NCBI GenBank assembly: GCA_965243065.1
Contig: CBDETO010000005.1
Coordinates: forward strand, 1,883,520 to 1,947,519
Direction: 5' to 3'
DNA from: Bdellovibrionales bacterium
GTDB taxonomy: Bacteria; Bdellovibrionota; Bdellovibrionia; Bdellovibrionales; UBA1609
Length of the DNA: 64,000 nucleotides
How positions within the stretch are numbered: the first letter of the stretch is position 1; the number at the start of each line of letters is the position of its first letter. Both the position numbers and the translations under genes were made by a program. Shown one piece after another: positions 1 through 17,389 of this stretch. The notes below the pieces were generated by a model, which saw nothing but the letters and a program-made list of their open reading frames with translations, ran no database searches and was not told the DNA's origin.

Positions 1-633
1 ACCATGAGTAGTGATAGCATGAGCTACCGCTAAAGAACCATCTACAGATGTCATAATCCCTGATGTTGTCATACGACCTGAAAGAGCTATATCAGTTGTT
101 TTTCCCAATTTTTTATGAAAATCCACATTGTTCCTCAGATAATCTTTTATCTCATTCTCTAGTTTTCTTCTCTTTTTCTTATCTGTTATTTTCTCTAATT
201 TTTCAAAATTTTTCTTTAATTGTTTTTCCTCCTCATTAGAAGAATTTTCATAAATATCTTTTATTTTTTCACAGATATATTGACATTCTGTTATAGACCA
301 TACAGATGTAGCTTCATCAGTTTCTTCAACTTTATTACCACTCAGGACTTCTATAGTTTTTTTAATCCATTTATCTTCTACTTTTCCTTTTAGCTCTTCC
401 TGCATCTTCTCAAAAAGTTTTGGTAATTCCTTTGTTCGTATGGATATTTCTCCTAATTGCTTTTTATAATAATCTGACTTTCTAATAGCACGCTTTAAAC
501 TCTGGCTGGAGATTCTTGTTCTTTTTACTCCTCCAAATATAGCTGTTTTTTGCATCCCCATATCATCACGATTAAGATTGGAAGGACTATGAGAAACCAG
601 GATATGAAAATTCATAAAATTTTTATCACTCAT
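1..633 (-). CDS. casC: Type I-E Cascade backbone subunit Cas7e (CasC/Cse4), 5' part only; gene runs off the left edge
   Basis: Own reverse-strand translation from ATG 633-631: MSDKNFMNFHILVSHSPSNLNRDDMGMQKTAIFGGVKRTRISSQSLKRAIRKS...ALSGRMTTSG...AVAHAITTHG. NLNRDD and R-ISSQ-LKRAIR are the CasC N-terminal signature. GGAG RBS at 641-644 (rc). Canonical position after cse2. Not in the ORF track because no stop lies in the window. Confidence 0.8.
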   Translation of the reverse strand, partial: MSDKNFMNFHILVSHSPSNLNRDDMGMQKTAIFGGVKRTRISSQSLKRAIRKSDYYKKQLGEISIRTKELPKLFEKMQEELKGKVEDKWIKKTIEVLSGNKVEETDEATSVWSITECQYICEKIKDIYENSSNEEEKQLKKNFEKLEKITDKKKRRKLENEIKDYLRNNVDFHKKLGKTTDIALSGRMTTSGIMTSVDGSLAVAHAITTHG

Positions 634-1301: not shown

Positions 1302-2792
1302 TTATGCAGCATTTCTTCTTCCTTCCACCAATAATGTATTTAATTTCCTATTGAGATATTTACGACCGTATTCAATAGCTTTTAAGAGTTTTGGATCATG
1401 TTCATAAGATTGAGTAGTTTCTTTAAAAGTATTTTTAGCAAGACTACAAAATTGTTTTTTGTATGCTTGTATTTTATTAAAATCCAGGTTCCTTAAGGTT
1501 TCATGTATAAGACTTTCTGAGTTATTGAAATATATTTGTTTAGTTAGCGGCTGAAGTTGTTTTTTTATGAAATTAGATCCTTCCTTCCCTTGATTACTGT
1601 ATTCTGATTTTAAGTTTTTACCTATTGAATATATTGAATCATTCAAAAGTTTTCCTGCTTTTAAAGCACATTTCACAAGTTCTATTATTTCACCTTGTTT
1701 TTCACTCCAACCTGACTTCAAACTATATATCTCATGTTTTCTACCTGCAAGACTTTCAGTAGATTTGCCTTTGATATAGCCTCCGACAGAAAGATTGATG
1801 CTTTTTCCCCTGCCTATTCCATTCACATAATGATCCACAACTAAAGCTCGGCTATATCCTTCCTGATCGGAGACAGTATATAATAGAGATAACATTTGTT
1901 TCCATAAATACTTTTCATTAACAGATATATAATAATGTTTGTTCTCGTTTTTCTTCCAACCTATAGGAGTATGAGGGTGTCTCCAAAATCCTTCAATATA
2001 AGATAAACCAGGTTCCTTAAAAAATCCTGTAGCTTTTCTTTGTTCATTAACTTCCAATTTAACTTTAGCAGGTTGATAAAAAAGGCCCCTCAACAATCCA
2101 ATTTTATGAGCATACTCCGGTCGATTTTTATTAAAAGCTATAGGCTTCACCCAACTTGGTTTATTTTCTACATCTTGGTTTCCAATATGCTGTTCTAACA
2201 ACTTTTTATCCAAAATATTGCACCAAACTGTTTTTCTTAAATTTTGAGATTCATCATAAATAAGTGTTGTTATAGGCATAGAGCCTTTAAGCCCTTTAGT
2301 AAAAGCTCTTCCTCCGAGACTAAATCCATTTGTAGCCTGTTGAAATAAAGCTATAGTGGCTCGCCCCAAATCTATTTCCTTCAATTCATCAACTCTATTG
2401 AAATGTGCATTTGAAGATCCCGATGTGCTAGATTTCTCCGGCAAGCCTATAAATAGTTTTTGTAAACTCGTCTCTTTTTTTTTATTTATAGTTTGCATGA
2501 AAGGATATTTAGGATGAAGAACATCAAACCAATCTTGAAAATGAGACACACCTTTATCATAGTTTTCTCCATCCATGGGATTATTATAAAAGGCTTCCAA
2601 TAGATTAAAATTGTTAGGCATAAAAATAACCTGAACCATACAAATAATCATTTGTAAGCAGGCCAACTCCATATCATCTCTATTCAATGCCAATGAATAT
2701 TTACCCTGACTGCAAAGCAATGTCCTCAGAGTGATTTTCTGATTATCCTGCACGGGTATCCATTTTTCAGTCAAAAGATTGTATTCGGGCAT
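1302..2792 (-). CDS. casA: Type I-E Cascade large subunit Cse1/CasA (Cas8e)
   Basis: 496 aa. N-terminus MPEYNLLTEKWIPVQ resembles the conserved NLL-x-W-IPV start of Cse1. Directly downstream of cas3. Confidence 0.7.
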   Translation of the reverse strand: MPEYNLLTEKWIPVQDNQKITLRTLLCSQGKYSLALNRDDMELACLQMIICMVQVIFMPNNFNLLEAFYNNPMDGENYDKGVSHFQDWFDVLHPKYPFMQTINKKKETSLQKLFIGLPEKSSTSGSSNAHFNRVDELKEIDLGRATIALFQQATNGFSLGGRAFTKGLKGSMPITTLIYDESQNLRKTVWCNILDKKLLEQHIGNQDVENKPSWVKPIAFNKNRPEYAHKIGLLRGLFYQPAKVKLEVNEQRKATGFFKEPGLSYIEGFWRHPHTPIGWKKNENKHYYISVNEKYLWKQMLSLLYTVSDQEGYSRALVVDHYVNGIGRGKSINLSVGGYIKGKSTESLAGRKHEIYSLKSGWSEKQGEIIELVKCALKAGKLLNDSIYSIGKNLKSEYSNQGKEGSNFIKKQLQPLTKQIYFNNSESLIHETLRNLDFNKIQAYKKQFCSLAKNTFKETTQSYEHDPKLLKAIEYGRKYLNRKLNTLLVEGRRNAA

Positions 2793-2896
2793 CGTTTGTC
2801 CAATTTTTTAGTGGAATTTAAAAATTATTTCTGATTTTTCTATTTTTTTCAAGTGTTAAGTTAACTTTTTCTATTTTGTCCTGAAGTTAAATAGAA

Positions 2897-5524
2897 TTAG
2901 CATAGGTTTTCTTTTTTTAATCCATATTTAAGAGTATAGGAAAATCTATACCCTTTACAAGTTTCCGATTGCCATTCTTCTCTATCAGGTATTTTAGTGA
3001 ACCGCAAATAGTAGAAACCTTGAATTATCTTTGCTGAAATATAACATTCCCAAGATTTAGGAACAGGGATAGTATTTTGATATAATTCTTCCCATTTTCT
3101 TTTATCTTTTGTTTCAACATTAGGAACTGCTTCACCTTCAAGGAAATAGTAAGCTCCATTTTTTTCGATAACAGGCACAACACTTAAATTCATCTCTCCC
3201 TCTCTTGTTAAAATTGCTGCATTTTCATCTGTGTCATTGAAAAAAGTATTTACGGATGTTAAAAGTCTCGCATTGGATTGGCTAGCATCACTTTCTCTTT
3301 TATACTTTCGAAAAGCCTCTATAATGTTTTCTGGTTCTTCTGTCCATCTCTCTCTTTGATACACTTTTTCTATCCACTCTCTGTAAGCTTTGGGAAATAT
3401 AATGTAACCAAGGGATTCTTTTCCATAAAGTAATTGCTGAGTCCGCCAGAGTGCCCGCTTATTTTTATATATATATTCATGGGTTTTATAGTCCCATTTG
3501 TCTTTTTCTGGAACAACAATAGAGCAAAAAGCTTTTTCAAAACCTTCAGGCCGTTGTTTCTCATGTCTGTGCAATCTGCCTATACGTTGAAATAATAAAT
3601 CCATAGGACATAAGTAAGTAATAAGCCAATCAAAATCAATATCCAAAGATTGCTCCAAAACTTGTGTGCCAACTAAAATACAAGCATCTTTCTTACTATC
3701 TTTGCCATATTTTTGTATCACAGATTTTTCTTTTTTCATTCTATCTTTATAACGATATCGAGAGTGAAAAATATCAACGGAAATCTCTCTCTCCATAAGT
3801 CTTTCCGCTATAACCTGAGCATCATTTACCAAATTGCAGATAATACCAACTTTAGCTGATTTTTGCTTTACCGTATTTGCAATTTTTTCCAATTCGTTTT
3901 CATCAAGAGACATGTTATTGTTTCTCCACAATTCAAAGAAAGTTTTTTTATGTCTTTCATCCTGGTCTAAAGAAAATGCTCTTAAACTTGAGTATTCTTT
4001 TTTGTCTTTATTAGTTTCTCTAACAGACTGTAAGATTAGGGGGTACTTATTCATGTGATCTTCATTCATAGAAATGCTTGAATCCCAAGTTTTTAAAAGC
4101 TGTTCCTTTTGAAACCAAGGCAAAGTTGCAGATAAAAGAATAACACTGCCACCAATTTGCTTCTGTGATTTAATAACTTTTTTTAAAAGACCATACATAT
4201 AGGCATCATAAGCGTGAACTTCATCAATAATAAGAACACTTTTACCGATACCAAAAGAACGAATAAAGTAATGTTTTAACGATGTTATTGTAGATAAAAG
4301 AACCTGATCTACAGTGGTAACAGCGATTTGTCCTAAAAAAGCTCTTTTTCTGGAAACAGCTAACCATTCATTACATTGAACTATAGCTTTATTTCCTTCA
4401 GCACCTGTTTGTTCAAAACTGTTTTTAATCAATTTTTTAAAGTCTTGATTATAAGGACTTTTTCCGTGAGCCAATATAACATTTTGGCCAGAGGAAAATA
4501 TTTTTTCTGAAACAATTCTCAGACGAGGAAGAATAGCATTAGCAGTTGCTTGTGAGGGCAACGCAAAGCTGATGCTGTCTGCAAAACCTTTTGCCAAAAG
4601 CTTAGACGCAAAAGCTATTGCTGCTTCTGTTTTTCCGCTCCCTGTGCTGGCTTCCATAATGATTAAACTAGGAATGATTTTCAATTTAGGAATCAATGTT
4701 TGAACATTTCTTGATCGTAATTCTGGATAAATCTGATTCATTCCTCCTTGAGTAATAATTTCTGTTAACAAGCCAAATTTTTTTAATACTTCTTGAGCTT
4801 TTTCTCTTCTTTTATTAAACCATAAAGATAAATCATGTTGAGATTCTGTAATTTCCTTTTGAGTTGCATATTTAAAATAATCTGTATTAGAACCAAGCCA
4901 ATCACAAACAGCACAAAAACCAGCCAACAAAACAGGAGGTTGCTCTTGTATATTCATATTTTCTAAACTAATGCATTGAGGTTTTAAAAATAATTTTTCC
5001 ATGTCTTTGACAAAATATTCTCTCACTATCTGGTCTCGTCTCCTTTCTTCTTTTGGCACATAAGATGGTAAGAAATTAGGCTCTGCATTATTAGGTATTG
5101 TCCCGTGGTGACCAGCAGTGTGAGCTAGCCAGTTTTGTAAATACCTTTTTTGATTACAGTTTTCAAAAAGAATATCACTTTCATGGACAAACCATTTATA
5201 ACCTCCTTCACCATGATCATAATTTGTATTTACCTCATTAGTATTATAAGGAGCTATTTCAGGAACCTTGTTTTGAAACCGCATATCCAGTTTACCATAA
5301 TCGTGTAAAGCAATAAAAAACAGAACCAACGCTTGTATCTGATTTTCTAAAAAACCAGTCTCTTGCATAAAACTGTTCCGTATGGCAGAGCTATGATTCC
5401 ACCACTCATGAGCTACTGCTACCACATCTAAAGAATGCAAATACAAAGGATGAGACTCAATATCTCCATCTTCTTTTTTTCTAGCTTTACCCCAATATTT
5501 GAAATAAGATTTGGATTGATTCAT
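2897..5524 (-). CDS. cas3: CRISPR-associated helicase/nuclease Cas3 (HD + DEAD/DEAH helicase)
   Basis: 875 aa. N-terminal HD domain (HSLDVVAVAHEWW ... ALHDYGKLDMRFQ), helicase motif I EASTGSGKTEAA, motif II DEVHAYD, later motifs VGTQVLEQSLDIDFD and QRIGRLHRH. Confidence 0.9.
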   Translation of the reverse strand: MNQSKSYFKYWGKARKKEDGDIESHPLYLHSLDVVAVAHEWWNHSSAIRNSFMQETGFLENQIQALVLFFIALHDYGKLDMRFQNKVPEIAPYNTNEVNTNYDHGEGGYKWFVHESDILFENCNQKRYLQNWLAHTAGHHGTIPNNAEPNFLPSYVPKEERRRDQIVREYFVKDMEKLFLKPQCISLENMNIQEQPPVLLAGFCAVCDWLGSNTDYFKYATQKEITESQHDLSLWFNKRREKAQEVLKKFGLLTEIITQGGMNQIYPELRSRNVQTLIPKLKIIPSLIIMEASTGSGKTEAAIAFASKLLAKGFADSISFALPSQATANAILPRLRIVSEKIFSSGQNVILAHGKSPYNQDFKKLIKNSFEQTGAEGNKAIVQCNEWLAVSRKRAFLGQIAVTTVDQVLLSTITSLKHYFIRSFGIGKSVLIIDEVHAYDAYMYGLLKKVIKSQKQIGGSVILLSATLPWFQKEQLLKTWDSSISMNEDHMNKYPLILQSVRETNKDKKEYSSLRAFSLDQDERHKKTFFELWRNNNMSLDENELEKIANTVKQKSAKVGIICNLVNDAQVIAERLMEREISVDIFHSRYRYKDRMKKEKSVIQKYGKDSKKDACILVGTQVLEQSLDIDFDWLITYLCPMDLLFQRIGRLHRHEKQRPEGFEKAFCSIVVPEKDKWDYKTHEYIYKNKRALWRTQQLLYGKESLGYIIFPKAYREWIEKVYQRERWTEEPENIIEAFRKYKRESDASQSNARLLTSVNTFFNDTDENAAILTREGEMNLSVVPVIEKNGAYYFLEGEAVPNVETKDKRKWEELYQNTIPVPKSWECYISAKIIQGFYYLRFTKIPDREEWQSETCKGYRFSYTLKYGLKKENLC

Positions 5525-9301: not shown

Positions 9302-11911
9302 CTAACTTTCTAAATTATCTTTTAATTTTAAACAATGCTGATTTTGCGAATCAAGCTTCAATCCTTGAACTACATATTCTTTAGCTTTAATATGTTGTTG
9401 GATATGAAGAGCAAGCCACGCCATTCTAGAAAAATCATCCGCTTTAGCTTCAGATTTTCTTTTTTCCAATATATCAAGAATTGGTTGTATCAAGTGAAGT
9501 TTTTTAGTTGTACTTATATCAAGTTGAGGGTTTCGTAGTAGCATATTTATCTCATTTGCTGCATTAGAAATTTTCCAAAAATATGTAGTATCGAATTGTG
9601 ACACTTTATTAAGTGTATGAATATAATTAAAGTGATCTTTCCTTTGTTTATATATTTTTGATAACATTATCCAAGCTTGTATTGCATCGCCTTCATTGGA
9701 ATTATCTTGAAGAAATAGATTGAGAGTGTTCTCTGCTTTTTTTAGATTTGAATCAGTACTATCTTGTTCCATGTAAAATCTAGCTAAGAGAATTCTACCA
9801 GGGTTATAGATTTGACAAATTACATCCAGAATAGACTCATACTTTTCAAAAGATTCTCCGTTATCAATGTAGTTAGACACATTTTTAATAAACTCCTCTA
9901 ATCGGTTATAAAGATTCAAAGACATATCATTTTGTCCAACAGAACCAAACATTTGCAATAATTTAACATCTTCTTTGACTTTTGATTTAAGTGGATGGAT
10001 TTTTAATTTTTTTTCTCCAAAGACTTTAGCTGTAAATGGTAACTCGATAAATTCTTGTTGATCCTCTGTTTTAATTTTCTGTATTAAGGAATAACGATAC
10101 AATGATTCAATAGCGTTACCTATATCCTCTATTTCCTCTTTCTCTTTAGATGAAGAAGCCATTAATACAGCTTCTAACGCAGTTTTTGGAACTTTAGAAT
10201 TCCAGCAGGCCAACACCATAAAAGTATATTGTGCACAGGGAGTTAAATTAGCATATGTTCGTTCAAACAAAGCTGTGAGAGCTCTGTCTTGTGTTGAAAG
10301 TGCTTTTGTTATATCTTTTGTTAGTTTCAACTCCCCCATTAGAATTTTTATAATATAAGGATGTCCTTGAGATAAAGAAATAATTTTTTGAGTTTTATTA
10401 CACACAAGTGACTTATCAATATCAAGATGTCCGGCTGTTTGATTTATTAATTGTTTTGATTCTTCTTCTGTCATTCCAGAAACCTCTAAAGGGTAGTCAC
10501 CTCTAAAATCACTAAGTCTTGTAGTTATTAAAATTTTGTTTGGAGATCGAATAAAGGAATCAATCCATTCAAACATTTCTGAAGGGTTTTGTATTGTTTC
10601 AAAGTTATCAAAAATAAAAAGACAGTTTTTAAATTCTTTTGAATCTTTTAATTCATTTTCAAAAAAAACCTTGCAATTGAATTTTTTGTCATTCAATTTA
10701 TCTTCTGAAAAAATGAGCTTTGTATAATATTTAGCTATATCTTTCTGTGAAAAGACATCTGGTTGCACTTGCTTGATTTTAATGCTGTCAGAAAGTAAAT
10801 CAATATCTCTTGCACTAAACCATACTATCCCCACGTATCGCTTTTCATCATATAACTTCTTAACCACCTGAAGAGTTAATGATGTTTTGCCTATACCCCC
10901 AGCACCATGTAATGTTACAACTTCTCGCCGCTTGTCCATCAATAGATCAAATAATTTTTTTTCTAAATCTGGTCTGTCAATGTAATCTATTGCTGGTTCA
11001 GGTACATTAGAAAAACAGTTTCCCTTTAATTCAAATTCATTACGACCCTGGGTTTCACTTTCCGGCAAAGCTCCTGGAGGAGGCAAATATTTTGAAGAAT
11101 CCCCTTGTTCTCTATCACCTGTATTATATGAAAGTAGCTCATATCGCTTGTCATTAAAGCTTCCATTTGCAACAAAAAAGTCGTTTAATTCAGGATCACT
11201 TAAAATAAAAGGAATATACTTTGGTTTTCCAAACCAAATATAAATTCCATTTTCAAATGTATAGATTTTTTCTTTTTTTAAATAGTCAAATACTTTAGTT
11301 TGATTTCCTAAAAAAGAAACTCGATATTTCCCCGATAAATTTCTATATAAGTATGCCCAAGTTCTCTGGAATAAATGAAAATTTGTATAAATCATACGAA
11401 TACTCTCAGAAAGAGGGATTGCCGCCTTTCCTGCAATATCTGATTGAGGAGCACCATGCCCACGAGTCTTATTTCTAAGTGTTGCAAATAAACGTATCCA
11501 ACGATTTAAATTCACTTTAGCAGGCAAAGACTCTGATTGAATGTTGAAATAGCCAAAAGCCTCCTTTAACTTAAGTACTGAATCACATTGCCAATCACCA
11601 GTTTGATGATATTTTGTTAGTTCTGTTTGTTCTACTCTTGCTTCCTGAAGTAGGTGTTGGGAAGCAGGACCTGTTAGTATATCATCAAGAACTTTACCAC
11701 AATCCCCTGGGCTATTGTTACGAACAAGATCATATTCTAATCGATAACGATTTCTGTCTTTATCATCTGTGATAGCAGCCAACATCCCAAAAGTAATTGT
11801 TTTAATTAATGCCTCTCCAGCATTAAGTAATGTAAAAAAGTAAGAAAAATCTGAATCCTCTTTTGCTTTTTCTGTTCTCTCAAGTACTTGTTCTATAAGC
11901 TTATGTCCCAT
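9302..11911 (-). CDS. STAND-class P-loop NTPase (NB-ARC-like) with unknown ~330-aa N-terminal domain and helical-repeat (TPR-like) C-terminus; candidate defence sensor
   Basis: Walker A TLHGAGGIGKTSL, Walker B CLFIFDNFE, long C-terminal helical region. N-domain contains LRNKTRGHG (fits the HEPN Rx4-6H pattern). Track start 11935 is TTG. ATG at 11911 has an AGGGGA RBS, so that start is preferred. Confidence 0.7.
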   Translation of the reverse strand: MGHKLIEQVLERTEKAKEDSDFSYFFTLLNAGEALIKTITFGMLAAITDDKDRNRYRLEYDLVRNNSPGDCGKVLDDILTGPASQHLLQEARVEQTELTKYHQTGDWQCDSVLKLKEAFGYFNIQSESLPAKVNLNRWIRLFATLRNKTRGHGAPQSDIAGKAAIPLSESIRMIYTNFHLFQRTWAYLYRNLSGKYRVSFLGNQTKVFDYLKKEKIYTFENGIYIWFGKPKYIPFILSDPELNDFFVANGSFNDKRYELLSYNTGDREQGDSSKYLPPPGALPESETQGRNEFELKGNCFSNVPEPAIDYIDRPDLEKKLFDLLMDKRREVVTLHGAGGIGKTSLTLQVVKKLYDEKRYVGIVWFSARDIDLLSDSIKIKQVQPDVFSQKDIAKYYTKLIFSEDKLNDKKFNCKVFFENELKDSKEFKNCLFIFDNFETIQNPSEMFEWIDSFIRSPNKILITTRLSDFRGDYPLEVSGMTEEESKQLINQTAGHLDIDKSLVCNKTQKIISLSQGHPYIIKILMGELKLTKDITKALSTQDRALTALFERTYANLTPCAQYTFMVLACWNSKVPKTALEAVLMASSSKEKEEIEDIGNAIESLYRYSLIQKIKTEDQQEFIELPFTAKVFGEKKLKIHPLKSKVKEDVKLLQMFGSVGQNDMSLNLYNRLEEFIKNVSNYIDNGESFEKYESILDVICQIYNPGRILLARFYMEQDSTDSNLKKAENTLNLFLQDNSNEGDAIQAWIMLSKIYKQRKDHFNYIHTLNKVSQFDTTYFWKISNAANEINMLLRNPQLDISTTKKLHLIQPILDILEKRKSEAKADDFSRMAWLALHIQQHIKAKEYVVQGLKLDSQNQHCLKLKDNLES

Positions 11912-12384
11912 AAAAGTCCCCTGACAGAAATTCAAGAATCTACCTGCCTAATATTTAGACTAGGTAAGAAAAAAATGTTTCACTTTTAACCTTTTGATTC
12001 CATTAATAGTGTGAAAAAAAGTGCAATCGTATTGTAGTAATCAGATTATCGGAAATTTTGCCAAAATCCTTGAATCTCCTTTTTTTAATCTTTTTAGTGT
12101 TCAGAACCTCTGTTTATATCATCCGTCAAATTAGAGCTTGCAGAGATTTAAAAAGCCGCTTAGAATTAAAATTATGTTGTTTTTTCTTGAAATAACTTGA
12201 AATTAAGAGACTTTTGACCGATAAATATTACTCTTATAAGATGACATGGCTATCTGAGTGGGTTAGGAAATTAAGTGTATGCCATTTAAAATTTACGGGT
12301 TTTATCAAATATCGTATTTTCTGAAGTGTATGGTCTTTTATAATCGATTTTTTAAGCAAATAATTTGCATCTAAAGGAGGAATT

Positions 12385-12588
12385 ATGGAGGATATAAAAA
12401 AAATAGAACAAAATTTAGATAAAGAAACCAAGGAACTAATAGAACTTTCAAGGGAAATGTTACGTATCTCTCGTAAGATGAGAGAAGAAAAAGTAGAAAA
12501 AATCAAACAAAGCACTTCTACTCCTTATGAAGAAGCTATAAGGATAAACCCATACCTATCTAAATATAGTGTCATTTCTTATTACTAA
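12385..12588 (+). CDS. 67-aa charged/coiled-coil protein, first gene of a 3-gene cassette
   Basis: AAGGAGG RBS ends 4 nt before the ATG. Sequence is K/E-rich (KETKELIELSREMLRISRKMREEKVEKIK). Confidence 0.55.
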   Translation: MEDIKKIEQNLDKETKELIELSREMLRISRKMREEKVEKIKQSTSTPYEEAIRINPYLSKYSVISYY

Positions 12589-12602
12589 TTCAAGAGCTTC
12601 GA

Positions 12603-13595
12603 ATGTCAGAACAAAACACACATCGCAGAAATAAACCAGAAAAACTTGAACTTCCAGAGCTTCCGAAAAACAATCAAGGGAAAAGAACACTAAAAAATCC
12701 ACAACCTCCATTTAGTTGGACTCTGCAACAAATGAAAGCTGATGCTGAAAACCAGATATTCCAGAGGCTAATTGATAATAGAAGAAATCTTATAGGACAG
12801 ATCGAAAAACTCAGATCATCAAAAGTTATTGTTTATTATTCTGTTCATCTTCTTGATTCTGAAGATTTTGAAACAATCTTTGACCTTTTAAATACTCTAG
12901 GAAAACAAAAAAATCTTGATTTATATATTTTAAGCCCAGGAGGTTTTGCTCACCCAGCTTATAAAATTTCTCGCCTTTTTCAAAGTTATAGTGAAGATAA
13001 ATTCTCAGTTTTAATTCCTTACTATGCTAAAAGTGCTGCAACTATTTTGTCCTTAGGTGCTGATGAAATTGTCATGGGTCCTGCATCAGAATTAGGTCCC
13101 ATTGATCCTCAATTTAGGATTTCTAATAATTCTCCTTCTATATCAGCTTTAGCTCTTAAAGAAGCTCTTGATTATATTACTAAAGCGATAAAAGAAGATT
13201 CAAAAATAGCTCCCCTCTATGTCCCTTTATTGGATAAAGTAGATTTAATAACATTAGGTCATTTTGAACGGGAAATAGAAAGTGCAAAGCAATACGGAGA
13301 AATTCTGTTAACTTCCAAAAAAAAGAACCCATTAACAGAAGAGAAAGCAAAAACAGTTGCTAATGACTTTGTCCAACAATATAAGACACATGGTTTTGTA
13401 ATTGATGGGCAAGCTGCCTCTTCTTTGTTAGGTAAAAATACTATCAAGTTAATTAGTGCGGATGATCCTACTTGGCAATGTATGTGGCAATTACATAATA
13501 CATATAATCAATATATAAAAGATAAAAAAACAACTGTTAAGCTCATTGAAACTCTTAGTGCATCATATGAAAAAGGGAATCAGAAAGTAAAATGA
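12603..13595 (+). CDS. ClpP/SppA-fold serine protease of the SDH (serine dehydrogenase proteinase) type
   Basis: 330 aa. LDLYILSPGGFAHPAYKISRLF and IPYYAKSAATILSLGADEIVMGPASELGPIDPQ match the Clp-fold peptidase core as I remember it (Ser in KSAAT as nucleophile). Confidence 0.65.
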   Translation: MSEQNTHRRNKPEKLELPELPKNNQGKRTLKNPQPPFSWTLQQMKADAENQIFQRLIDNRRNLIGQIEKLRSSKVIVYYSVHLLDSEDFETIFDLLNTLGKQKNLDLYILSPGGFAHPAYKISRLFQSYSEDKFSVLIPYYAKSAATILSLGADEIVMGPASELGPIDPQFRISNNSPSISALALKEALDYITKAIKEDSKIAPLYVPLLDKVDLITLGHFEREIESAKQYGEILLTSKKKNPLTEEKAKTVANDFVQQYKTHGFVIDGQAASSLLGKNTIKLISADDPTWQCMWQLHNTYNQYIKDKKTTVKLIETLSASYEKGNQKVK

Positions 13596-13984
13596 CTGAA
13601 CTAAAAAAGATAGAACCTATTCTTCAATATATAATCCTGTGTGATGCTGTAGCTAAAGACCAATCTGGAAAGCCAGTTTATATTGGAGTGTTTGATAGAC
13701 TGAATAAACATACAGTTCTTCCACAATTTGTCGTTGCACTAAAATGGATTTGTGGTTTAGGTTCTCATGCGTTTAAGTTGAAAATACTAGATCCTAATCT
13801 CGATACCCTACAAATAATTGGTGATTTTCCAATACAATTCAAAGCAAAAACAGATGTAATTCATGCTGATTTTCCGATTATCAATTTTAATTTTGATAAA
13901 GTAGGAGTTTATTGGATAGAAATCATATTGAATGATATTAGCCATCTATCTATTCCTTTACCAGTTCATCAGTTACAATCTTAA
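13592..13984 (+). CDS. 130-aa hypothetical protein, translationally coupled to the protease
   Basis: ATG overlaps the protease stop (ATGA at 13592-13595). Beta-rich looking, no motif recognised. Confidence 0.55.
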   Translation: MTELKKIEPILQYIILCDAVAKDQSGKPVYIGVFDRLNKHTVLPQFVVALKWICGLGSHAFKLKILDPNLDTLQIIGDFPIQFKAKTDVIHADFPIINFNFDKVGVYWIEIILNDISHLSIPLPVHQLQS

Positions 13985-13991
13985 GAATTAT

Positions 13992-14008
13992 CTTTTCAGG
14001 GACGATCC
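13992..14008 (+). repeat. 17-bp direct repeat CTTTTCAGGGACGATCC (left copy)
   Basis: Exact copy at 14827-14843. Diverged inverted copy at 5698-5722. Confidence 0.8.
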
Positions 14009-14189
14009 AATCCACTCAAAGATACAAGTCCAATAAAAACTAATGAAAGTTCAAGCTAAATGGACCTATCTTTGTCGTGGCCCCGTTTCGACTGGATGGG
14101 TGTGAACAGGCAAAAACCTGCTTTCACATTTTTAGAGCCTGAAAAACAACTATTTTAATGTAAAAGTCCCAACTAAAAAACAATAGCTA

Positions 14190-14217
14190 TTGACAAATAA
14201 TTCAAAAGACCGATAAT
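14190..14217 (+). promoter_or_regulatory. Sigma70-like promoter (TTGACA-16 nt-GATAAT) in front of module copy B
   Basis: TTGACA 14190-14195, GATAAT 14212-14217. Confidence 0.5.
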
Positions 14218-14320
14218 AAGAAGTGACATCCCCACTCGTTTCGACTGGTGGGTGCGAGCAGGCGAGAGCCTGCTTTTGCTTTTTTAGAACATGAAAAAAA
14301 TTATTATTTATATTGATGGC

Positions 14321-14348
14321 TTGACTTATCCAAAAAAATACACATAAT
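14321..14348 (+). promoter_or_regulatory. Sigma70-like promoter (TTGACT-16 nt-CATAAT) in front of module copy C
   Basis: TTGACT 14321-14326, CATAAT 14343-14348. Same architecture as the 14190 promoter. Confidence 0.5.
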
Positions 14349-14421
14349 AACAGGTAACATCCCCACTTGTTTCGGTGAGTGGGTGCGAGCAGGCGAGAGC
14401 CTGCTTTCGCGTTTTTAGAGC

Positions 14422-14589
14422 ATGAAAAAAACCATTGTTTATATTGACGGATTCAATCTTTACTATCGCATAAAATATACCCCTTATAGGTGGTTAAGCC
14501 TCCAAAAGCTGTCTCAATATTATTTGGATTTAAAACAAAATCAGATAATTAACATTAAATATTTTACGGCAAAGGTAAAAAGGAAATCA
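14422..14589 (+). pseudogene. N-terminal ~56-codon stub of an NYN-domain (PIN-like RNase fold) gene, truncated by IS debris
   Basis: MKKTIVYIDGFNLYYRIKYTPYRWLSLQKLSQYY...IKYFTAKV is the typical start of bacterial NYN-domain proteins. The reading frame then runs into IS3-like sequence. Confidence 0.6.
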
Positions 14590-14812
14590 GTAGATTCCTC
14601 TTTTAGTGGGGAAGAGGTTGAAGTAAAGAAGTTGCGGGCGACAGTGAAGCGTCTCCAAGATGAGAGAGACATTTAAAAAAAAGCCGTGAGTTTCTTTGTC
14701 AAACACGACGGGTAAAGTATGAGTTTATTTTTGCTTACAAAAAAAAGATGGAGTATCTCTTTGATGTGTGAAGTTTTAGAAGTTTCCAGAAGTGGATATT
14801 GCCATTGGCTTC
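14590..14812 (+). pseudogene. Fragment of an IS3-family transposase (orfA end / frameshift region / orfB start), multiply frameshifted
   Basis: KKLRATVKRLQDERDI*KKAVSFFVK (orfA C-terminus pattern ERDILKKA-FA), KYEFIF in another frame, and SLMCEVLEVSRSGYCHWL (orfB start pattern VSRSGYY-W). Confidence 0.6.
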
Positions 14813-14826
14813 CTTCCAACTGTCCC

Positions 14827-14843
14827 CTTTTCAGGGACGATCC
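14827..14843 (+). repeat. 17-bp direct repeat CTTTTCAGGGACGATCC (right copy)
   Basis: Exact match to 13992-14008. The extended 25-nt version 14819-14843 matches rc of 5698-5722 at 21/25. Confidence 0.8.
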
Positions 14844-14864
14844 TTTGTGTTATGTTGAGTTGAA

Positions 14865-15323
14865 ATGAAAAAGATCCACAAATGCTTTTTCTTCTTAACT
14901 ACTTTTGTTTTTTTAGCTGTGTTTTCCAGTTTATGTTATTCTGCCGCTAAGAAAAGATATTCTACTTGCCCTAAAGGGTTTGAAGATTTGTTTCCGCTGG
15001 AGGATTTTGTTCAGCTGATGGTAGATATGAAAATTTATTCAAACCGGGATTTGGTTAAAGCAAAAAGAGAGGGTGATTTTCCTGAAGAGGTTCCTGATAA
15101 GCCTCTTCGGGCTTATCCTGAACTGGGAGGAAAATGGGATGTATTATGGGATGCAGTGCATGCTCGTCGTGTGTCACAAGGGGAAAATGTAGTTGAGCGA
15201 AGAAAGTTGACAGATGGGGAGCTTCGAACCCTTATGTCAGAGGCTTCTGAGGGTTTAAACAGAAAAGTGGCACTAGAGCTAGAGGAAGACTCTTTGATAG
15301 AACAGAAAGAAGGGGGGCATTGA
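14865..15323 (+). CDS. Secreted hypothetical protein (152 aa)
   Basis: Signal-peptide-like N-terminus MKKIHKCFFFLTTFVFLAVFSSLCYSA. No motif recognised. Confidence 0.5.
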   Translation: MKKIHKCFFFLTTFVFLAVFSSLCYSAAKKRYSTCPKGFEDLFPLEDFVQLMVDMKIYSNRDLVKAKREGDFPEEVPDKPLRAYPELGGKWDVLWDAVHARRVSQGENVVERRKLTDGELRTLMSEASEGLNRKVALELEEDSLIEQKEGGH

Positions 15324-15502
15324 TGATCAAAAAGAGATCACCCTGGGGGCAAAAAATCGAAGTAACAATAAAAAAGAAATAGGCCGGTGAGGGAGCGGTA
15401 AATATGGGTACTGGGAGGTTGCAAATTCCTGACCTGTTCGGTTATAAAAGTGGGAAGCTCTAAAAAGAGGGTTCTTTATTTTATTTTTTAGGAATAGATA
15501 TA

Positions 15503-15578
15503 GCGGGAGTAGCTCAATTGGTAGAGTATCAGCCTTCCAAGCTGAGGGTTGCGGGTTCGAGGCCCGTCTCCCGCTCCA
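15503..15578 (+). tRNA. tRNA-Gly (anticodon TCC), CCA encoded
   Basis: Hand-folded cloverleaf: acceptor GCGGGAG/CTCCCGC, anticodon stem TCAGC/GCTGA, loop CTTCCAA. Confidence 0.9.
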
Positions 15579-15585
15579 ACTTAAA

Positions 15586-15660
15586 GCCCATGTGGCTCAG
15601 TGGTAGAGCACACCCTTGGTAAGGGTGAGACCGTGGGTTCGATTCCCGCCATGGGCTCCA
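15586..15660 (+). tRNA. tRNA-Thr (anticodon GGT), CCA encoded
   Basis: Acceptor GCCCATG/CATGGGC, anticodon stem CACCC/GGGTG, loop TTGGTAA, T-arm GTGGG-TTCGATT-CCCGC. Confidence 0.9.
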
Positions 15661-15916
15661 AAGAAAGAAAGAAAGAAAGATGTGGTTCAGCGGGTCCGGG
15701 CCCACCCTTGTTAAGGGTATGGCCCGTGGGTTCGATTCCCGCCATGGGCTCCAAAGAAAAGATGTAGCTCAGCGGGTCCGGGCACCCCCGTTGTTAAGGG
15801 TATGGCCCGTGGGTTCGATTCCCGCCATGGGCTCCAAAGAAAGAAAGAAAGATGTGGTTCAGCGGATCCGGGCCCACCCTTGTTAAGGGTATGTCCCGTG
15901 GGTTCGATTCCCGCCA
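15661..15916 (+). repeat. Three tandem tRNA-Thr-derived pseudo-tRNA units separated by (AAAG)n spacers
   Basis: Units share the exact tRNA-Thr 3' half CCGTGGGTTCGATTCCCGCCATGGGCTCCA. The 5' acceptor strand is replaced (AAAGATG vs GCCCATG), the D-arm is altered, and the anticodon loop is TTGTTAA. ORFs 15680-15886 and 15852-16061 are artefacts of this repeat. Confidence 0.8.
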
Positions 15917-16204
15917 GGAAGTTACGGATTTTGTATTAGAGTTCCGGTTTTATGGTTTTTTAAAGGTAAAAATGGGGTTCAGTAGCTCCGAGGGGTCTTT
16001 GATTGGCAAAAGGTGTGTCTGTATGAAAGTAAAAAATGAGTGTTATATCCATATAAAATAATAATTTAGGTGATTTTTAAAAAAAAAGGGTTTTATTTTT
16101 CTCTAATATTGGCTATTAGTAAAGATTGATCCTTTATTCAATAATAAAATGGATTAGATAAAGTTTATTAAAAACTAAAAATGGAAAAAGGGAGGAACAA
16201 CTCA

Positions 16205-17389
16205 ATGGCAAAAGAAAAGTTTCAGAGAAATAAAGAGCATGTCAATGTAGGTACTATTGGTCATGTGGATCATGGAAAAACCACCTTAACAGCGGCTATT
16301 ACAACTGTATTGGCAAAAACAGGTGGGGCAGAAGTGATGAAATATGATCAAATTGATAAAGCTCCAGAAGAAAAAACTCGTGGGATTACTATTTCTACAA
16401 CTCATGTGGAATACGAAACGGAAAAGCGTCACTATGCTCATGTGGACTGTCCTGGTCATGCGGATTATGTAAAAAATATGATTACCGGGGCGGCTCAGAT
16501 GGATGGAGCTATTTTGGTTGTTTCCGCGGCGGATGGACCTATGCCTCAGACCCGTGAACATATTTTGTTGGCCCGGCAGGTGGGTGTTCCCGCTATTGTG
16601 GTTTATATGAATAAATGTGATCAGGTGAATGATACGGAACTGTTGGATTTGGTAGAAATGGAGATACGCGAGCGTTTGAATGAATATAAATTTCCTGGCG
16701 ATGATACCCCTATTATTAAAGGTTCTGCTTTAAAAGCCCTAGAAGGGGATGCCAAGGCGGAAGAGTCTATAATGGAATTGATGAAGGCCATTGATACGAA
16801 TATTCCCTCGCCGGTTAGAGATAAAGATAAGCCTTTTCTTATGCCTATTGAGGATGTGTTTTCCATTTCTGGTCGAGGCACAGTCGTTACAGGACGAATC
16901 GAAAGAGGTGTGGTGAAAGTGAGTAACGAAATAGAAATTGTGGGTATCCGTGACACGAAAAAAACAGTGGTTACAGGTATTGAAATGTTTAGAAAAGAAT
17001 TGGATCAGGGGGAAGCCGGGGATAATGCCGGTTGTTTGCTTAGAGGTGTGGATAAGACCGATGTGGAAAGAGGACAGGTTTTGGCTGCGCCAGGTACCAT
17101 CACTCCGCATAAGAAATTTAAGTGTGAATGTTATATTTTGACAAAAGATGAAGGGGGTCGTCATACGGCTTTTCTAAATGGTTATCGTCCTCAGTTTTAC
17201 TTTCGTACAACGGATGTGACAGGAGCTATTGCTTTGCCAAAAGGCACGGAAATGGTGATGCCAGGGGATAATGCTACAATGGAAGTGGAGCTTATTTCTC
17301 CTATTGCGATGGAAAAGGGAAGTAAGTTTGCGGTTCGTGAAGGTGGTAGAACGGTAGGAGCTGGTGTAGTAACTGAGGTGCTGGAATAA
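16205..17389 (+). CDS. tuf: Elongation factor Tu
   Basis: [28 protein letters not shown]..., [21 protein letters not shown] precedes the ATG at 16205 (the track start 16181 is an upstream in-frame ATG). Confidence 0.97.

Follow-up and report, generated by a model that had tools for sequence, protein, structure and literature searches.

A 64,000-nucleotide (nt) stretch of DNA from a Bdellovibrionales bacterium (GCA_965243065.1, contig CBDETO010000005.1), hereafter the window and the frame for all coordinates given without a contig name, carries three tandem RNA units in front of the stub of a gene for an NYN-domain protein. To judge from its sequence, this locus is a decayed copy of a widespread two-gene module, composed of a small RNA gene of about 60 nt and an NYN gene of the HEC-09 type. 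Across at least eight phyla, on plasmids and in prophages, the unit is a small RNA gene coupled to one NYN clade. Both of its stems covary strongly, and the ~60-nt RNA is a previously undescribed family that is absent from Rfam. By analogy with type III toxin–antitoxin (TA) systems, we see an even chance that the pair works as a type III-like module in which an RNA antitoxin holds an NYN ribonuclease (RNase) in check.

Conservation and covariation of the RNA unit

NYN relatives were collected from one genome per species, which yielded at least 544 confirmed members among 578 pattern matches, and the best 80 loci (36–74% identity) were analyzed. These derive from Bdellovibrionota (the sponge-associated lineage of the window), Chloroflexota, Gemmatimonadota, Actinobacteriota, Acidobacteriota, Planctomycetota, Verrucomicrobiota, Deinococcota, Proteobacteria and others. 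A covariance model trained only on the 11 copies of this genome (R1) detected the unit at 68 of the 80 loci (E <= 1). A second model (R2), built from 63 diverse copies and with 53 of the 80 loci in its training set, detected it at 78 (E <= 0.01), 25 of which were new detections. The two remaining loci comprise one whose contig ends 23 nt after the gene and one (L070) whose NYN gene lacks a start codon, a promoter box being fused to codon 3. In five genomes of other phyla, R2 found one or two copies each, and six of these eight copies adjoin an NYN gene.

The placement of the RNA varies between lineages. At 59 of the 80 loci, drawn from many phyla, it lies upstream on the same strand, and the RNA match, whose 3′ end takes in about 13 nt beyond the U-run, is separated from the beginning of the NYN match by −1 to 55 nt. 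It follows the stop codon in convergent orientation at 16 loci, mostly of Solirubrobacterales, Acidimicrobiales and other Actinobacteriota (five of them inspected by eye), and lies upstream on the opposite strand at three loci of Acidobacteriota. NYN genes of Actinobacteriota apparently start very near their own promoter; if their mRNAs are leaderless, a 5′ RNA would not be tolerable, which, as an inference only, would explain why the RNA gene has been relocated.

The unit opens with a promoter of sigma-70 type, and a conserved A stands 4 nt ahead of the C-run that comes next. A 9–10-bp hairpin, usually with a UUCG loop, is then linked through a conserved GGGYGCRR junction to a bulged terminator hairpin, after which the unit closes with a U-run. 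In the alignment of 63 sequences, which was fitted to the model and to that extent favors structure, 92.2% of the pair cells hold standard pairs compared with 74.6% in shuffles, and 207 cells are changed on both sides compared with 60; none of 500 shuffles reached the observed value for either measure. Sliding the partners by 1–3 columns lowered the pairing to 30–54%. The stems differ almost wholly between phyla, in contrast to the constant loops, 5′ C-run, GGGYGCRR junction and bulge; the U-run is conserved in the alignment as well. An A at −4 from the C-run is present in 51 of the 63 copies, and a TTGNNN-16..18-(T/A)ANNNT pattern ending 10–16 nt before the first paired C occurs in 42 of 81 copies, as against 11 of 623 control windows. 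Given this promoter placement and the frequent A, the unit has the look of an independent gene for an RNA of ~60 nt, which we infer to be made as a discrete and abundant transcript.

Both hairpins coexist in the minimum-energy and centroid folds, and neither fold contains an alternative antiterminator pairing. Rfam returned no match up to E 10 within 14076–14589; at 15 loci of other phyla it returned no family for the unit, the sole overlap being isrB at E 0.91, short of its gathering threshold. The absence of a tRNA or Rfam match and of a variable single-stranded segment ruled out a tRNA-like element and a guide RNA.

Within this genome, a HEC-09 profile search gave nine matches in eight loci, and NYN loci were located by blastn with the unit and tblastn with a paralog. 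All eight carry a promoter, two hairpins and a U-run directly upstream. When 11 copies are aligned, 17 pairs are predicted, and 11 of these show compensatory changes; in the inner stem of hairpin 2, for example, GCAGGC/GCCUGC becomes GCGACC/GGUCGC. R1 found 14 copies at E < 1e-5, including its own 11 training copies. Four of the 14 precede intact NYN genes of 212–231 codons, and the other ten precede a frameshifted gene, a gene truncated by an insertion sequence (IS), stubs of 6–60 codons, an IS end or other genes (Gp49/HigB-like, DUF2188). Every intact NYN gene seen in this genome has an RNA unit, and the RNA variant differs between the genome's NYN clades. Two NYN genes are cut just after the YIDG motif, leaving stubs of 8 codons (G000:C5:2038778-2038900) and 10 codons (window 14291–14320); one of these junctions leads into another module and the other into a dispersed repeat. 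Together with the promoter box fused to codon 3 at L070, such cuts hint at a recombination-prone spot at the A-rich start of the NYN gene.

An earlier reading of the window, made from the sequence alone, had proposed a covariance-model search for intact loci. The module is present at 8/8 NYN loci here and was detected at 78/80 elsewhere. It had also allowed for intact NYN homologs lacking the module, which these counts contradict, and for a simple recent duplication without conservation in other genomes. The units are instead conserved far beyond this genome, their stems covary, and window units B and C are 81% identical.

NYN homologs also occur on 407 plasmid records, including 207 of Klebsiella, 55 of Xanthomonas and 43 of Escherichia, and on three phage records; some of the plasmids measure only 3.4–5.4 kb. 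In the Mycobacterium prophage prophiGD43A-1, the NYN gene sits between integrase and repressor with a convergent RNA (E 8e-15). Among loci on viral contigs, the RNA was found upstream in 8/22 at E < 1e-4, with three more at E < 0.1. All eight plasmid loci inspected by eye have a structured segment and a strong terminator ahead of NYN. On enterobacterial and Xanthomonas plasmid loci, R2 gave weak or no matches; the RNAs at plasmid loci look like other families, several of which share a GCGAUUAAGUU motif, and their kinship with the window unit is unproven. The E. coli plasmid CP057030 (4612 bp) carries a 33-nt unit, consisting of a C-run, a 7-bp hairpin and a spacer, in 2.6–3.1 copies, followed by a terminator and then by NYN, an order that matches the classical type III arrangement.

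The NYN protein and described systems

The intact paralogs match Pfam NYN (PF01936) at E 1e-10, with 32.7–42.4 bits against a gathering cut-off of 24.2. A paralog aligned with the PADLOC profile HEC-09 (PDLC04163) at E 1.1e-42, residues 1–211 falling on profile positions 1–202 of 203. A profile search of PDB sequences returned no match. The AlphaFold2 model of a paralog (predicted local distance difference test, pLDDT, 91) was placed by fold search nearest to 2qip, to the NYN domain of MARF1 and, more weakly, to the RNase domains of ZC3H12 proteins; the sequence identity of the eukaryotic Regnase/ZC3H12 and MARF1 matches to the model is 8–19%. Residues D9, D120, D143 and D145 of the paralog, the acidic positions to be expected in the active site of an NYN/PIN protein, are invariant or nearly so in 12 sequences, and on this modeled fold with its conserved acidic residues the protein is predicted to be an RNase.

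HEC-09 (Hma-embedded candidate 09) was put forward as a defense candidate for being embedded in Hma systems, and the accessible portion of the preprint notes a similarity to the MARF1-like NYN domain with three shared active-site aspartates (bioRxiv 10.1101/2024.01.29.577857). The protein described here agrees with that family in being a single NYN-domain protein of ~200 residues, in its full-length profile match and in its fold likeness to MARF1. It differs from core members in scoring about 140 bits on the profile against about 270, which makes the clade a sister group of core HEC-09, and in its adjoining RNA gene. No RNA component is mentioned for HEC-09 in the portion of the preprint covered, where the terms 'non-coding' and 'ncRNA' have 0 occurrences, supplements aside (bioRxiv 10.1101/2024.01.29.577857).

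Pfam family PF01936 and the nearest structure, 2qip, likewise link the protein to the NYN.COG1432/LabA-like cluster of the PIN-like superfamily. In the available sections of the 2017 PIN survey, 2qip is named for this cluster, its function is given as 'function unknown' and no associated RNA is described; bacterial NYN (PF01936/COG1432) proteins, listed there as of unknown function, number in the thousands (PMC5499597). The same sections mention an NYN homolog carrying DUF2384 (PMC5499597). In Cupriavidus necator N-1 (NC_015724.1, 297856–298572), an NYN match falls at a gene whose annotation reads antitoxin Xre/MbcA/ParS toxin-binding domain protein, and some NYN proteins may thus be fused to a TA-type domain. 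No account of an RNA that accompanies NYN genes turned up in a literature search that left aside the supplements of the HEC preprint and of the 224-motif paper; the main text of the latter contains 0 occurrences of NYN, PF01936 or DUF88. Regnase/ZC3H12 and MARF1 share the NYN/PIN-like catalytic fold but occur in eukaryotes as multidomain proteins that have no small RNA gene dedicated to them.

Type III TA systems (ToxIN, CptIN, TenpIN and AbiQ/antiQ) combine a promoter-driven structured RNA, a Rho-independent terminator and a gene of endoribonuclease fold. Their antitoxin is a tandem direct-repeat array that the toxin cuts into units, and this RNA binds and inhibits the toxin; the modules occur on plasmids, in prophages and in defense-type neighborhoods. 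The NYN module is alike in placing a structured RNA with promoter and terminator before an RNase-fold gene, with RNA expected to exceed protein, in its occurrence on plasmids, in prophages and in defense-type neighborhoods, and in the tandem RNA repeats of some members. The type III layout, with the RNA just upstream and a Rho-independent terminator between RNA and gene, is found at 59/80 loci and at 8/8 in this genome, and not at the 19 loci with convergent or divergent RNA. Fold search and Pfam place the protein in the NYN (PIN-like) fold and not in the ToxN/AbiQ/CptN/TenpN superfamily. Unlike a type III antitoxin, moreover, the RNA is mostly a single unit bounded by its own promoter and terminator and not cut from an array, and it may be convergent or divergent to the gene. 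The likeness to ToxI/ToxN drawn in the sequence-only reading extends to promoter, structured RNA, terminator and RNase-fold gene, but the three units of the window do not form a processed array of the ToxI kind.

Most loci lack a repeat array; arrays are confined to some, namely the window (three partial modules), a congener (5 x 70 nt) and the E. coli plasmid (33 nt x ~3). In the congener (G012:C7:957500-962500, locus 2773–3127, minus strand), five tandem units follow one another with a 70-nt period, with a promoter on the first unit only and the last four nearly identical. This array lies between the end of an upstream gene and a SLFN_AlbA_2/HATPase_c_4/HTH gene, with no NYN gene adjoining. 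A separate observation concerns OZ241323.1, a 'Porisulfidus' metagenome-assembled genome, in which four same-strand RNA units, each with the same promoter, lie within 1403–3112; one precedes NYN, and the other three lie downstream of NYN before unrelated short open reading frames (ORFs).

A possible type III-like mechanism and its alternatives

In a type III-like mechanism, the RNA would bind the NYN protein and restrain its RNase activity, as in type III TA or abortive infection. The gap of −1 to 55 nt in the upstream class leaves little room for a separate promoter, so that NYN would be produced only through read-through of the RNA's terminator and the RNA would greatly exceed the protein. 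Loss of the RNA supply would free the nuclease, the expected triggers being plasmid loss or phage-induced shut-off of host transcription. Three orientations of RNA and gene fit a separate trans-acting gene and not a mere 5′ leader. The decay is one-sided, with 10/14 RNA copies in this genome lacking an intact NYN gene and no intact NYN gene lacking the RNA, which fits the logic of an RNA antitoxin; occurrence on very small plasmids and in accessory parts of prophages, the existence of repeat arrays and clade-specific RNA variants fit type III logic as well. In the window, insertion of an IS3-family element has destroyed the nuclease gene, and partial modules have piled up as units A, B and C, of which B and C persist perhaps by covering the four intact NYN paralogs elsewhere in the genome.

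A more far-reaching proposal, whose chances we put a little short of even, is that these loci form a new phylum-spanning type III-like TA or abortive-infection family. Its NYN RNase would be neutralized by a dedicated two-hairpin RNA of ~60 nt with its own promoter and terminator, and each NYN clade would have its own cognate RNA family (the UUCG-loop hairpin, the GCGAUUAAGUU form of enterobacterial plasmids and the CCCC-hairpin repeats of small E. coli plasmids). If true, a large share of the bacterial NYN proteins of 'function unknown' would gain a function, and HEC-09 would be recast as a two-component system. A covarying RNA tied to NYN nucleases offers a concrete and cheap-to-test handle on function: it predicts an RNA–protein pair, a regulatory logic based on read-through and perhaps a new RNA-antitoxin class whose toxin has another fold. 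The RNA family spans at least eight phyla, and hundreds of plasmids of well-studied genera and prophages are counted besides.

Several observations weigh against an antitoxin role. Most loci hold a single RNA unit with its own promoter and not the processed tandem repeats by which the type III antitoxins described to date are defined, and the unit has no predicted pseudoknot. The unit also precedes unrelated genes in this genus and at one other sponge-symbiont locus (Gp49/HigB-like, GmrSD_N, SLFN_AlbA_2, Ion_trans, Multi_ubiq and DUF2188), and a general leader function would be the simpler account of those cases. Four congeners (G001, G005, G011 and G016) have RNA matches and no HEC-09 match. 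Conversely, the two top-scoring HEC-09 genes of one Anaerolineales genome both lack an R2 match; by eye, one has a variant two-hairpin leader and the other nothing obvious. According to the accessible portion of the preprint, the HEC-09 representative tested there, its native promoter region included, gave no protection against any phage tried (bioRxiv 10.1101/2024.01.29.577857).

The position of the unit could alternatively reflect a cis-acting autoregulatory or attenuating leader, in which the terminator throttles transcription into NYN, hairpin 1 is a binding or cleavage target through which the NYN protein or a host factor sets NYN expression, and no toxin is neutralized. Such an arrangement would resemble the way in which RNases govern their own mRNA by means of a stem-loop; Regnase recognizes stem-loops and regulates its own mRNA. 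It would suit the 59 of 80 loci where the unit stands directly upstream on the same strand with little promoter room, the strong terminator before NYN in 8/8 plasmid loci inspected, and the other genes headed by the unit in this genus, as expected of a portable regulatory leader. However, a convergent or divergent RNA, as found at 19/80 loci, cannot be an NYN leader, the folds offer no antiterminator pairing, and orphan RNA copies with intact promoters outlast the loss of NYN; we consider a leader role rather unlikely. The same tight adjacency, being independent of orientation, would be expected of a non-toxic ribonucleoprotein whose RNA serves as cofactor, scaffold or natural substrate, for instance in a sensor or processing complex. 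Conserved unpaired nucleotides at the 5′ C-run, the junction and the bulge would agree with this, as would the lack of a defense phenotype reported in the accessible preprint text for the representative of the related core HEC-09 family. Yet the RNA has no variable single-stranded guide segment, only the covarying stems varying, and very small plasmids and the accessory regions of prophages are enriched in the family. Repeated loss of NYN with retention of the RNA resembles an antidote more than a cofactor, which would be useless alone, and we judge a ribonucleoprotein improbable.

A DNA-level explanation would require no RNA function at all, the unit being a generic cassette of promoter and terminator or the end of a mobile element. 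The window array is indeed bracketed by IS ends, and copies in this genome lie near IS elements and other repeats. Hairpin 1 and the junction, however, are conserved with compensatory changes over at least eight phyla of unrelated IS content, the unit is associated with one protein clade and not with a transposase, and the five genomes of other phyla hold only one or two copies each, with 6/8 beside NYN. A cassette of this kind is very improbable.

The tandem array in the window and its surroundings

Sequence reading of 13600–15400 and a repeat finder located three head-to-tail units at 14067–14451. The repeat finder reported a 119-nt repeat at 14204–14322 and 14335–14453 (84% identical, 131 nt apart) and a 63-nt core present three times, at 14097, 14249 and 14380, with 73–78% identity and spacings of 152 and 131. 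In pairwise alignment, B and C are 81% identical (107/132) and their hairpins 1 are different covarying variants with paired changes; A is 72% identical to B and 69% to C over the leader plus start. The array is therefore not a fresh duplication, and a recent slip duplication as origin of the triplication was ruled out by the B/C identity and the differing hairpin-1 variants. The layout of B and C runs from promoter through the UUCG-type-loop hairpin, the bulged G+C-rich hairpin and the U-run to a 5-nt spacer and ATG AAA AAA. The repeated unit takes in the first ten NYN codons, such that B ends in MKKIIIYIDG and C starts MKKTIVYIDG. As read from these features (Table 1), the array consists of stacked partial modules, every one of which has a promoter and an NYN start of its own, at an IS3-wrecked locus.

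The three tandem units described in the sequence-only reading were recovered by both approaches. Near-consensus promoters were borne out for B and C, and unit A has none; both hairpins with a T-run hold for B and C, and hairpin 1 of A is degraded. The compensatory change proposed for hairpin 2 of unit A (GCGA..TCGC to GTGA..TCAC) is real. The noted absence of a Shine–Dalgarno sequence is correct here but is a trait of the lineage, since alignment rows of other phyla often have an AGGA/GGGG-type sequence after the U-run. The NYN gene is, as claimed, cut after about 56–60 codons by IS3 debris, as seen from a profile match to positions 1–60 and from 83–84% IS identity.

A promoter scan of the region returned four promoter-like sites against 4.9 expected, a count that by itself is non-significant. 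A terminator scan returned five sites against 1.1 +/- 1.2 in shuffles, among them the hairpin-2 and T-run sites of both B and C, each of which has the G+C-rich hairpin followed by a U-run of an intrinsic terminator. RNA B scored 78.6 bits with R1 and 69.5 bits with R2 (fold −26.3 kcal/mol, z −3.95), and RNA C scored 78.3 and 64.9 bits (−27.5 kcal/mol, z −4.16). Unit A reached only z −1.15 and had no R2 match at E <= 0.001; its 56.3 bits with R1 come from a model that had unit A in its training set. B and C keep promoters, folds and terminators and are probably two expressible RNA genes. The locus as a whole reads as a wreck, with unit A dead and the nuclease gene lacking its catalytic half.

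Table 1. Features of the tandem array and flanking IS3-family remnants, in window coordinates
Feature	Position	Strand	Description
17-nt dispersed repeat, solo copy upstream of array	13992..14008	.	matches terminal part of the genome's IS3-family element
Unit A, degraded RNA copy	14076..14134	+	hairpin 1 eroded; hairpin 2 and T-run retained; no promoter
NYN-start remnant after unit A, decayed	14139..14161	+	aligns with ATGAAAAAAA...TTTATA start region of B and C
Unit B promoter	14190..14217	+	TTGACA, 16-nt spacer, GATAAT; 11/12 matches
RNA B, ~60 nt (predicted)	14226..14285	+	conserved A (inferred start), hairpin 1 (UUCG-type loop), terminator hairpin 2, U-run
NYN stub B, 10 codons	14291..14320	+	MKKIIIYIDG; ended by -35 box of unit C
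Unit C promoter	14321..14348	+	TTGACT, 16-nt spacer, CATAAT; 10/12 matches
RNA C, ~60 nt (predicted)	14357..14416	+	architecture as RNA B; hairpin 1 is another covarying variant
NYN (HEC-09-like) gene stub	14422..14589	+	residues 1 to about 56-60; second-half catalytic Asp residues absent
IS3-family debris	14601..14846	+	internal piece (end of orfA, start of orfB) 14601-14815 joined to element end 14812-14846

The reading frame of the NYN stub continues into the IS debris up to 14676 (ORF 14422–14676, 84 residues). The stub is 59% identical to an intact paralog over the aligned part and matches HEC-09 profile positions 1–60 at E 1.7e-11; Pfam NYN gave no significant match to the 84-residue ORF alone. 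By blastn, the 215 nt at 14601–14815 are 83–84% identical to an internal piece of eight other genomic copies of the element, and a full copy encodes HTH_Tnp_1 and HTH_21+rve ORFs, the architecture of the IS3 family. About 760 nt of the element are absent between this internal piece and the element end. An exact second copy of the 17-nt repeat at 14827–14843 brackets the array; the repeat has 17 copies in the genome and, in full elements, lies ~970 nt downstream of the piece that the debris matches.

A search of sequencing runs found this stretch mainly in sponge metagenomes, and in an independent metagenome run (X6) one contig is identical to the window over 13710–14384. Only one of the libraries was of RNA (X16), and its single contig (188 nt) covers 14524–14711, outside the RNA units; such contigs cannot reveal small RNAs or transcript ends.

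Upstream of the array, 9302–13984 holds a minus-strand gene for an 877-residue NB-ARC/STAND NTPase, together with an operon that encodes a ClpP-like SDH-type serine protease (12603–13595) and a DUF6941 protein (13592–13984). This neighborhood looks like a defense island in its gene content; none of the STAND NTPase, the SDH-type protease and the DUF6941 protein gave a convincing match to a PADLOC model. Directly after the IS debris, 14865–15323 encodes a 152-residue ORF with a hydrophobic N-terminus and no Pfam match. Two intact tRNA genes (15503–15575 and 15586–15657) are followed by tRNA-like fragments at 15680–15745 and 15762–15828 that score below the Rfam threshold, all upstream of tuf (16181–17389), and 15503–15830 may be a partly duplicated and decayed tRNA array.

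Elsewhere, on the 17-kb contig G000:C4, weak tblastn matches recur with a mostly 824-nt period and two gaps of double that length, which suggests a long tandem repeat array. At G000:C5:472000-474000 (134–514), a full copy of the IS3-family element stands right after a 126-residue ORF matching the first third of a C-5 cytosine DNA methylase, a gene that was probably interrupted by the insertion.

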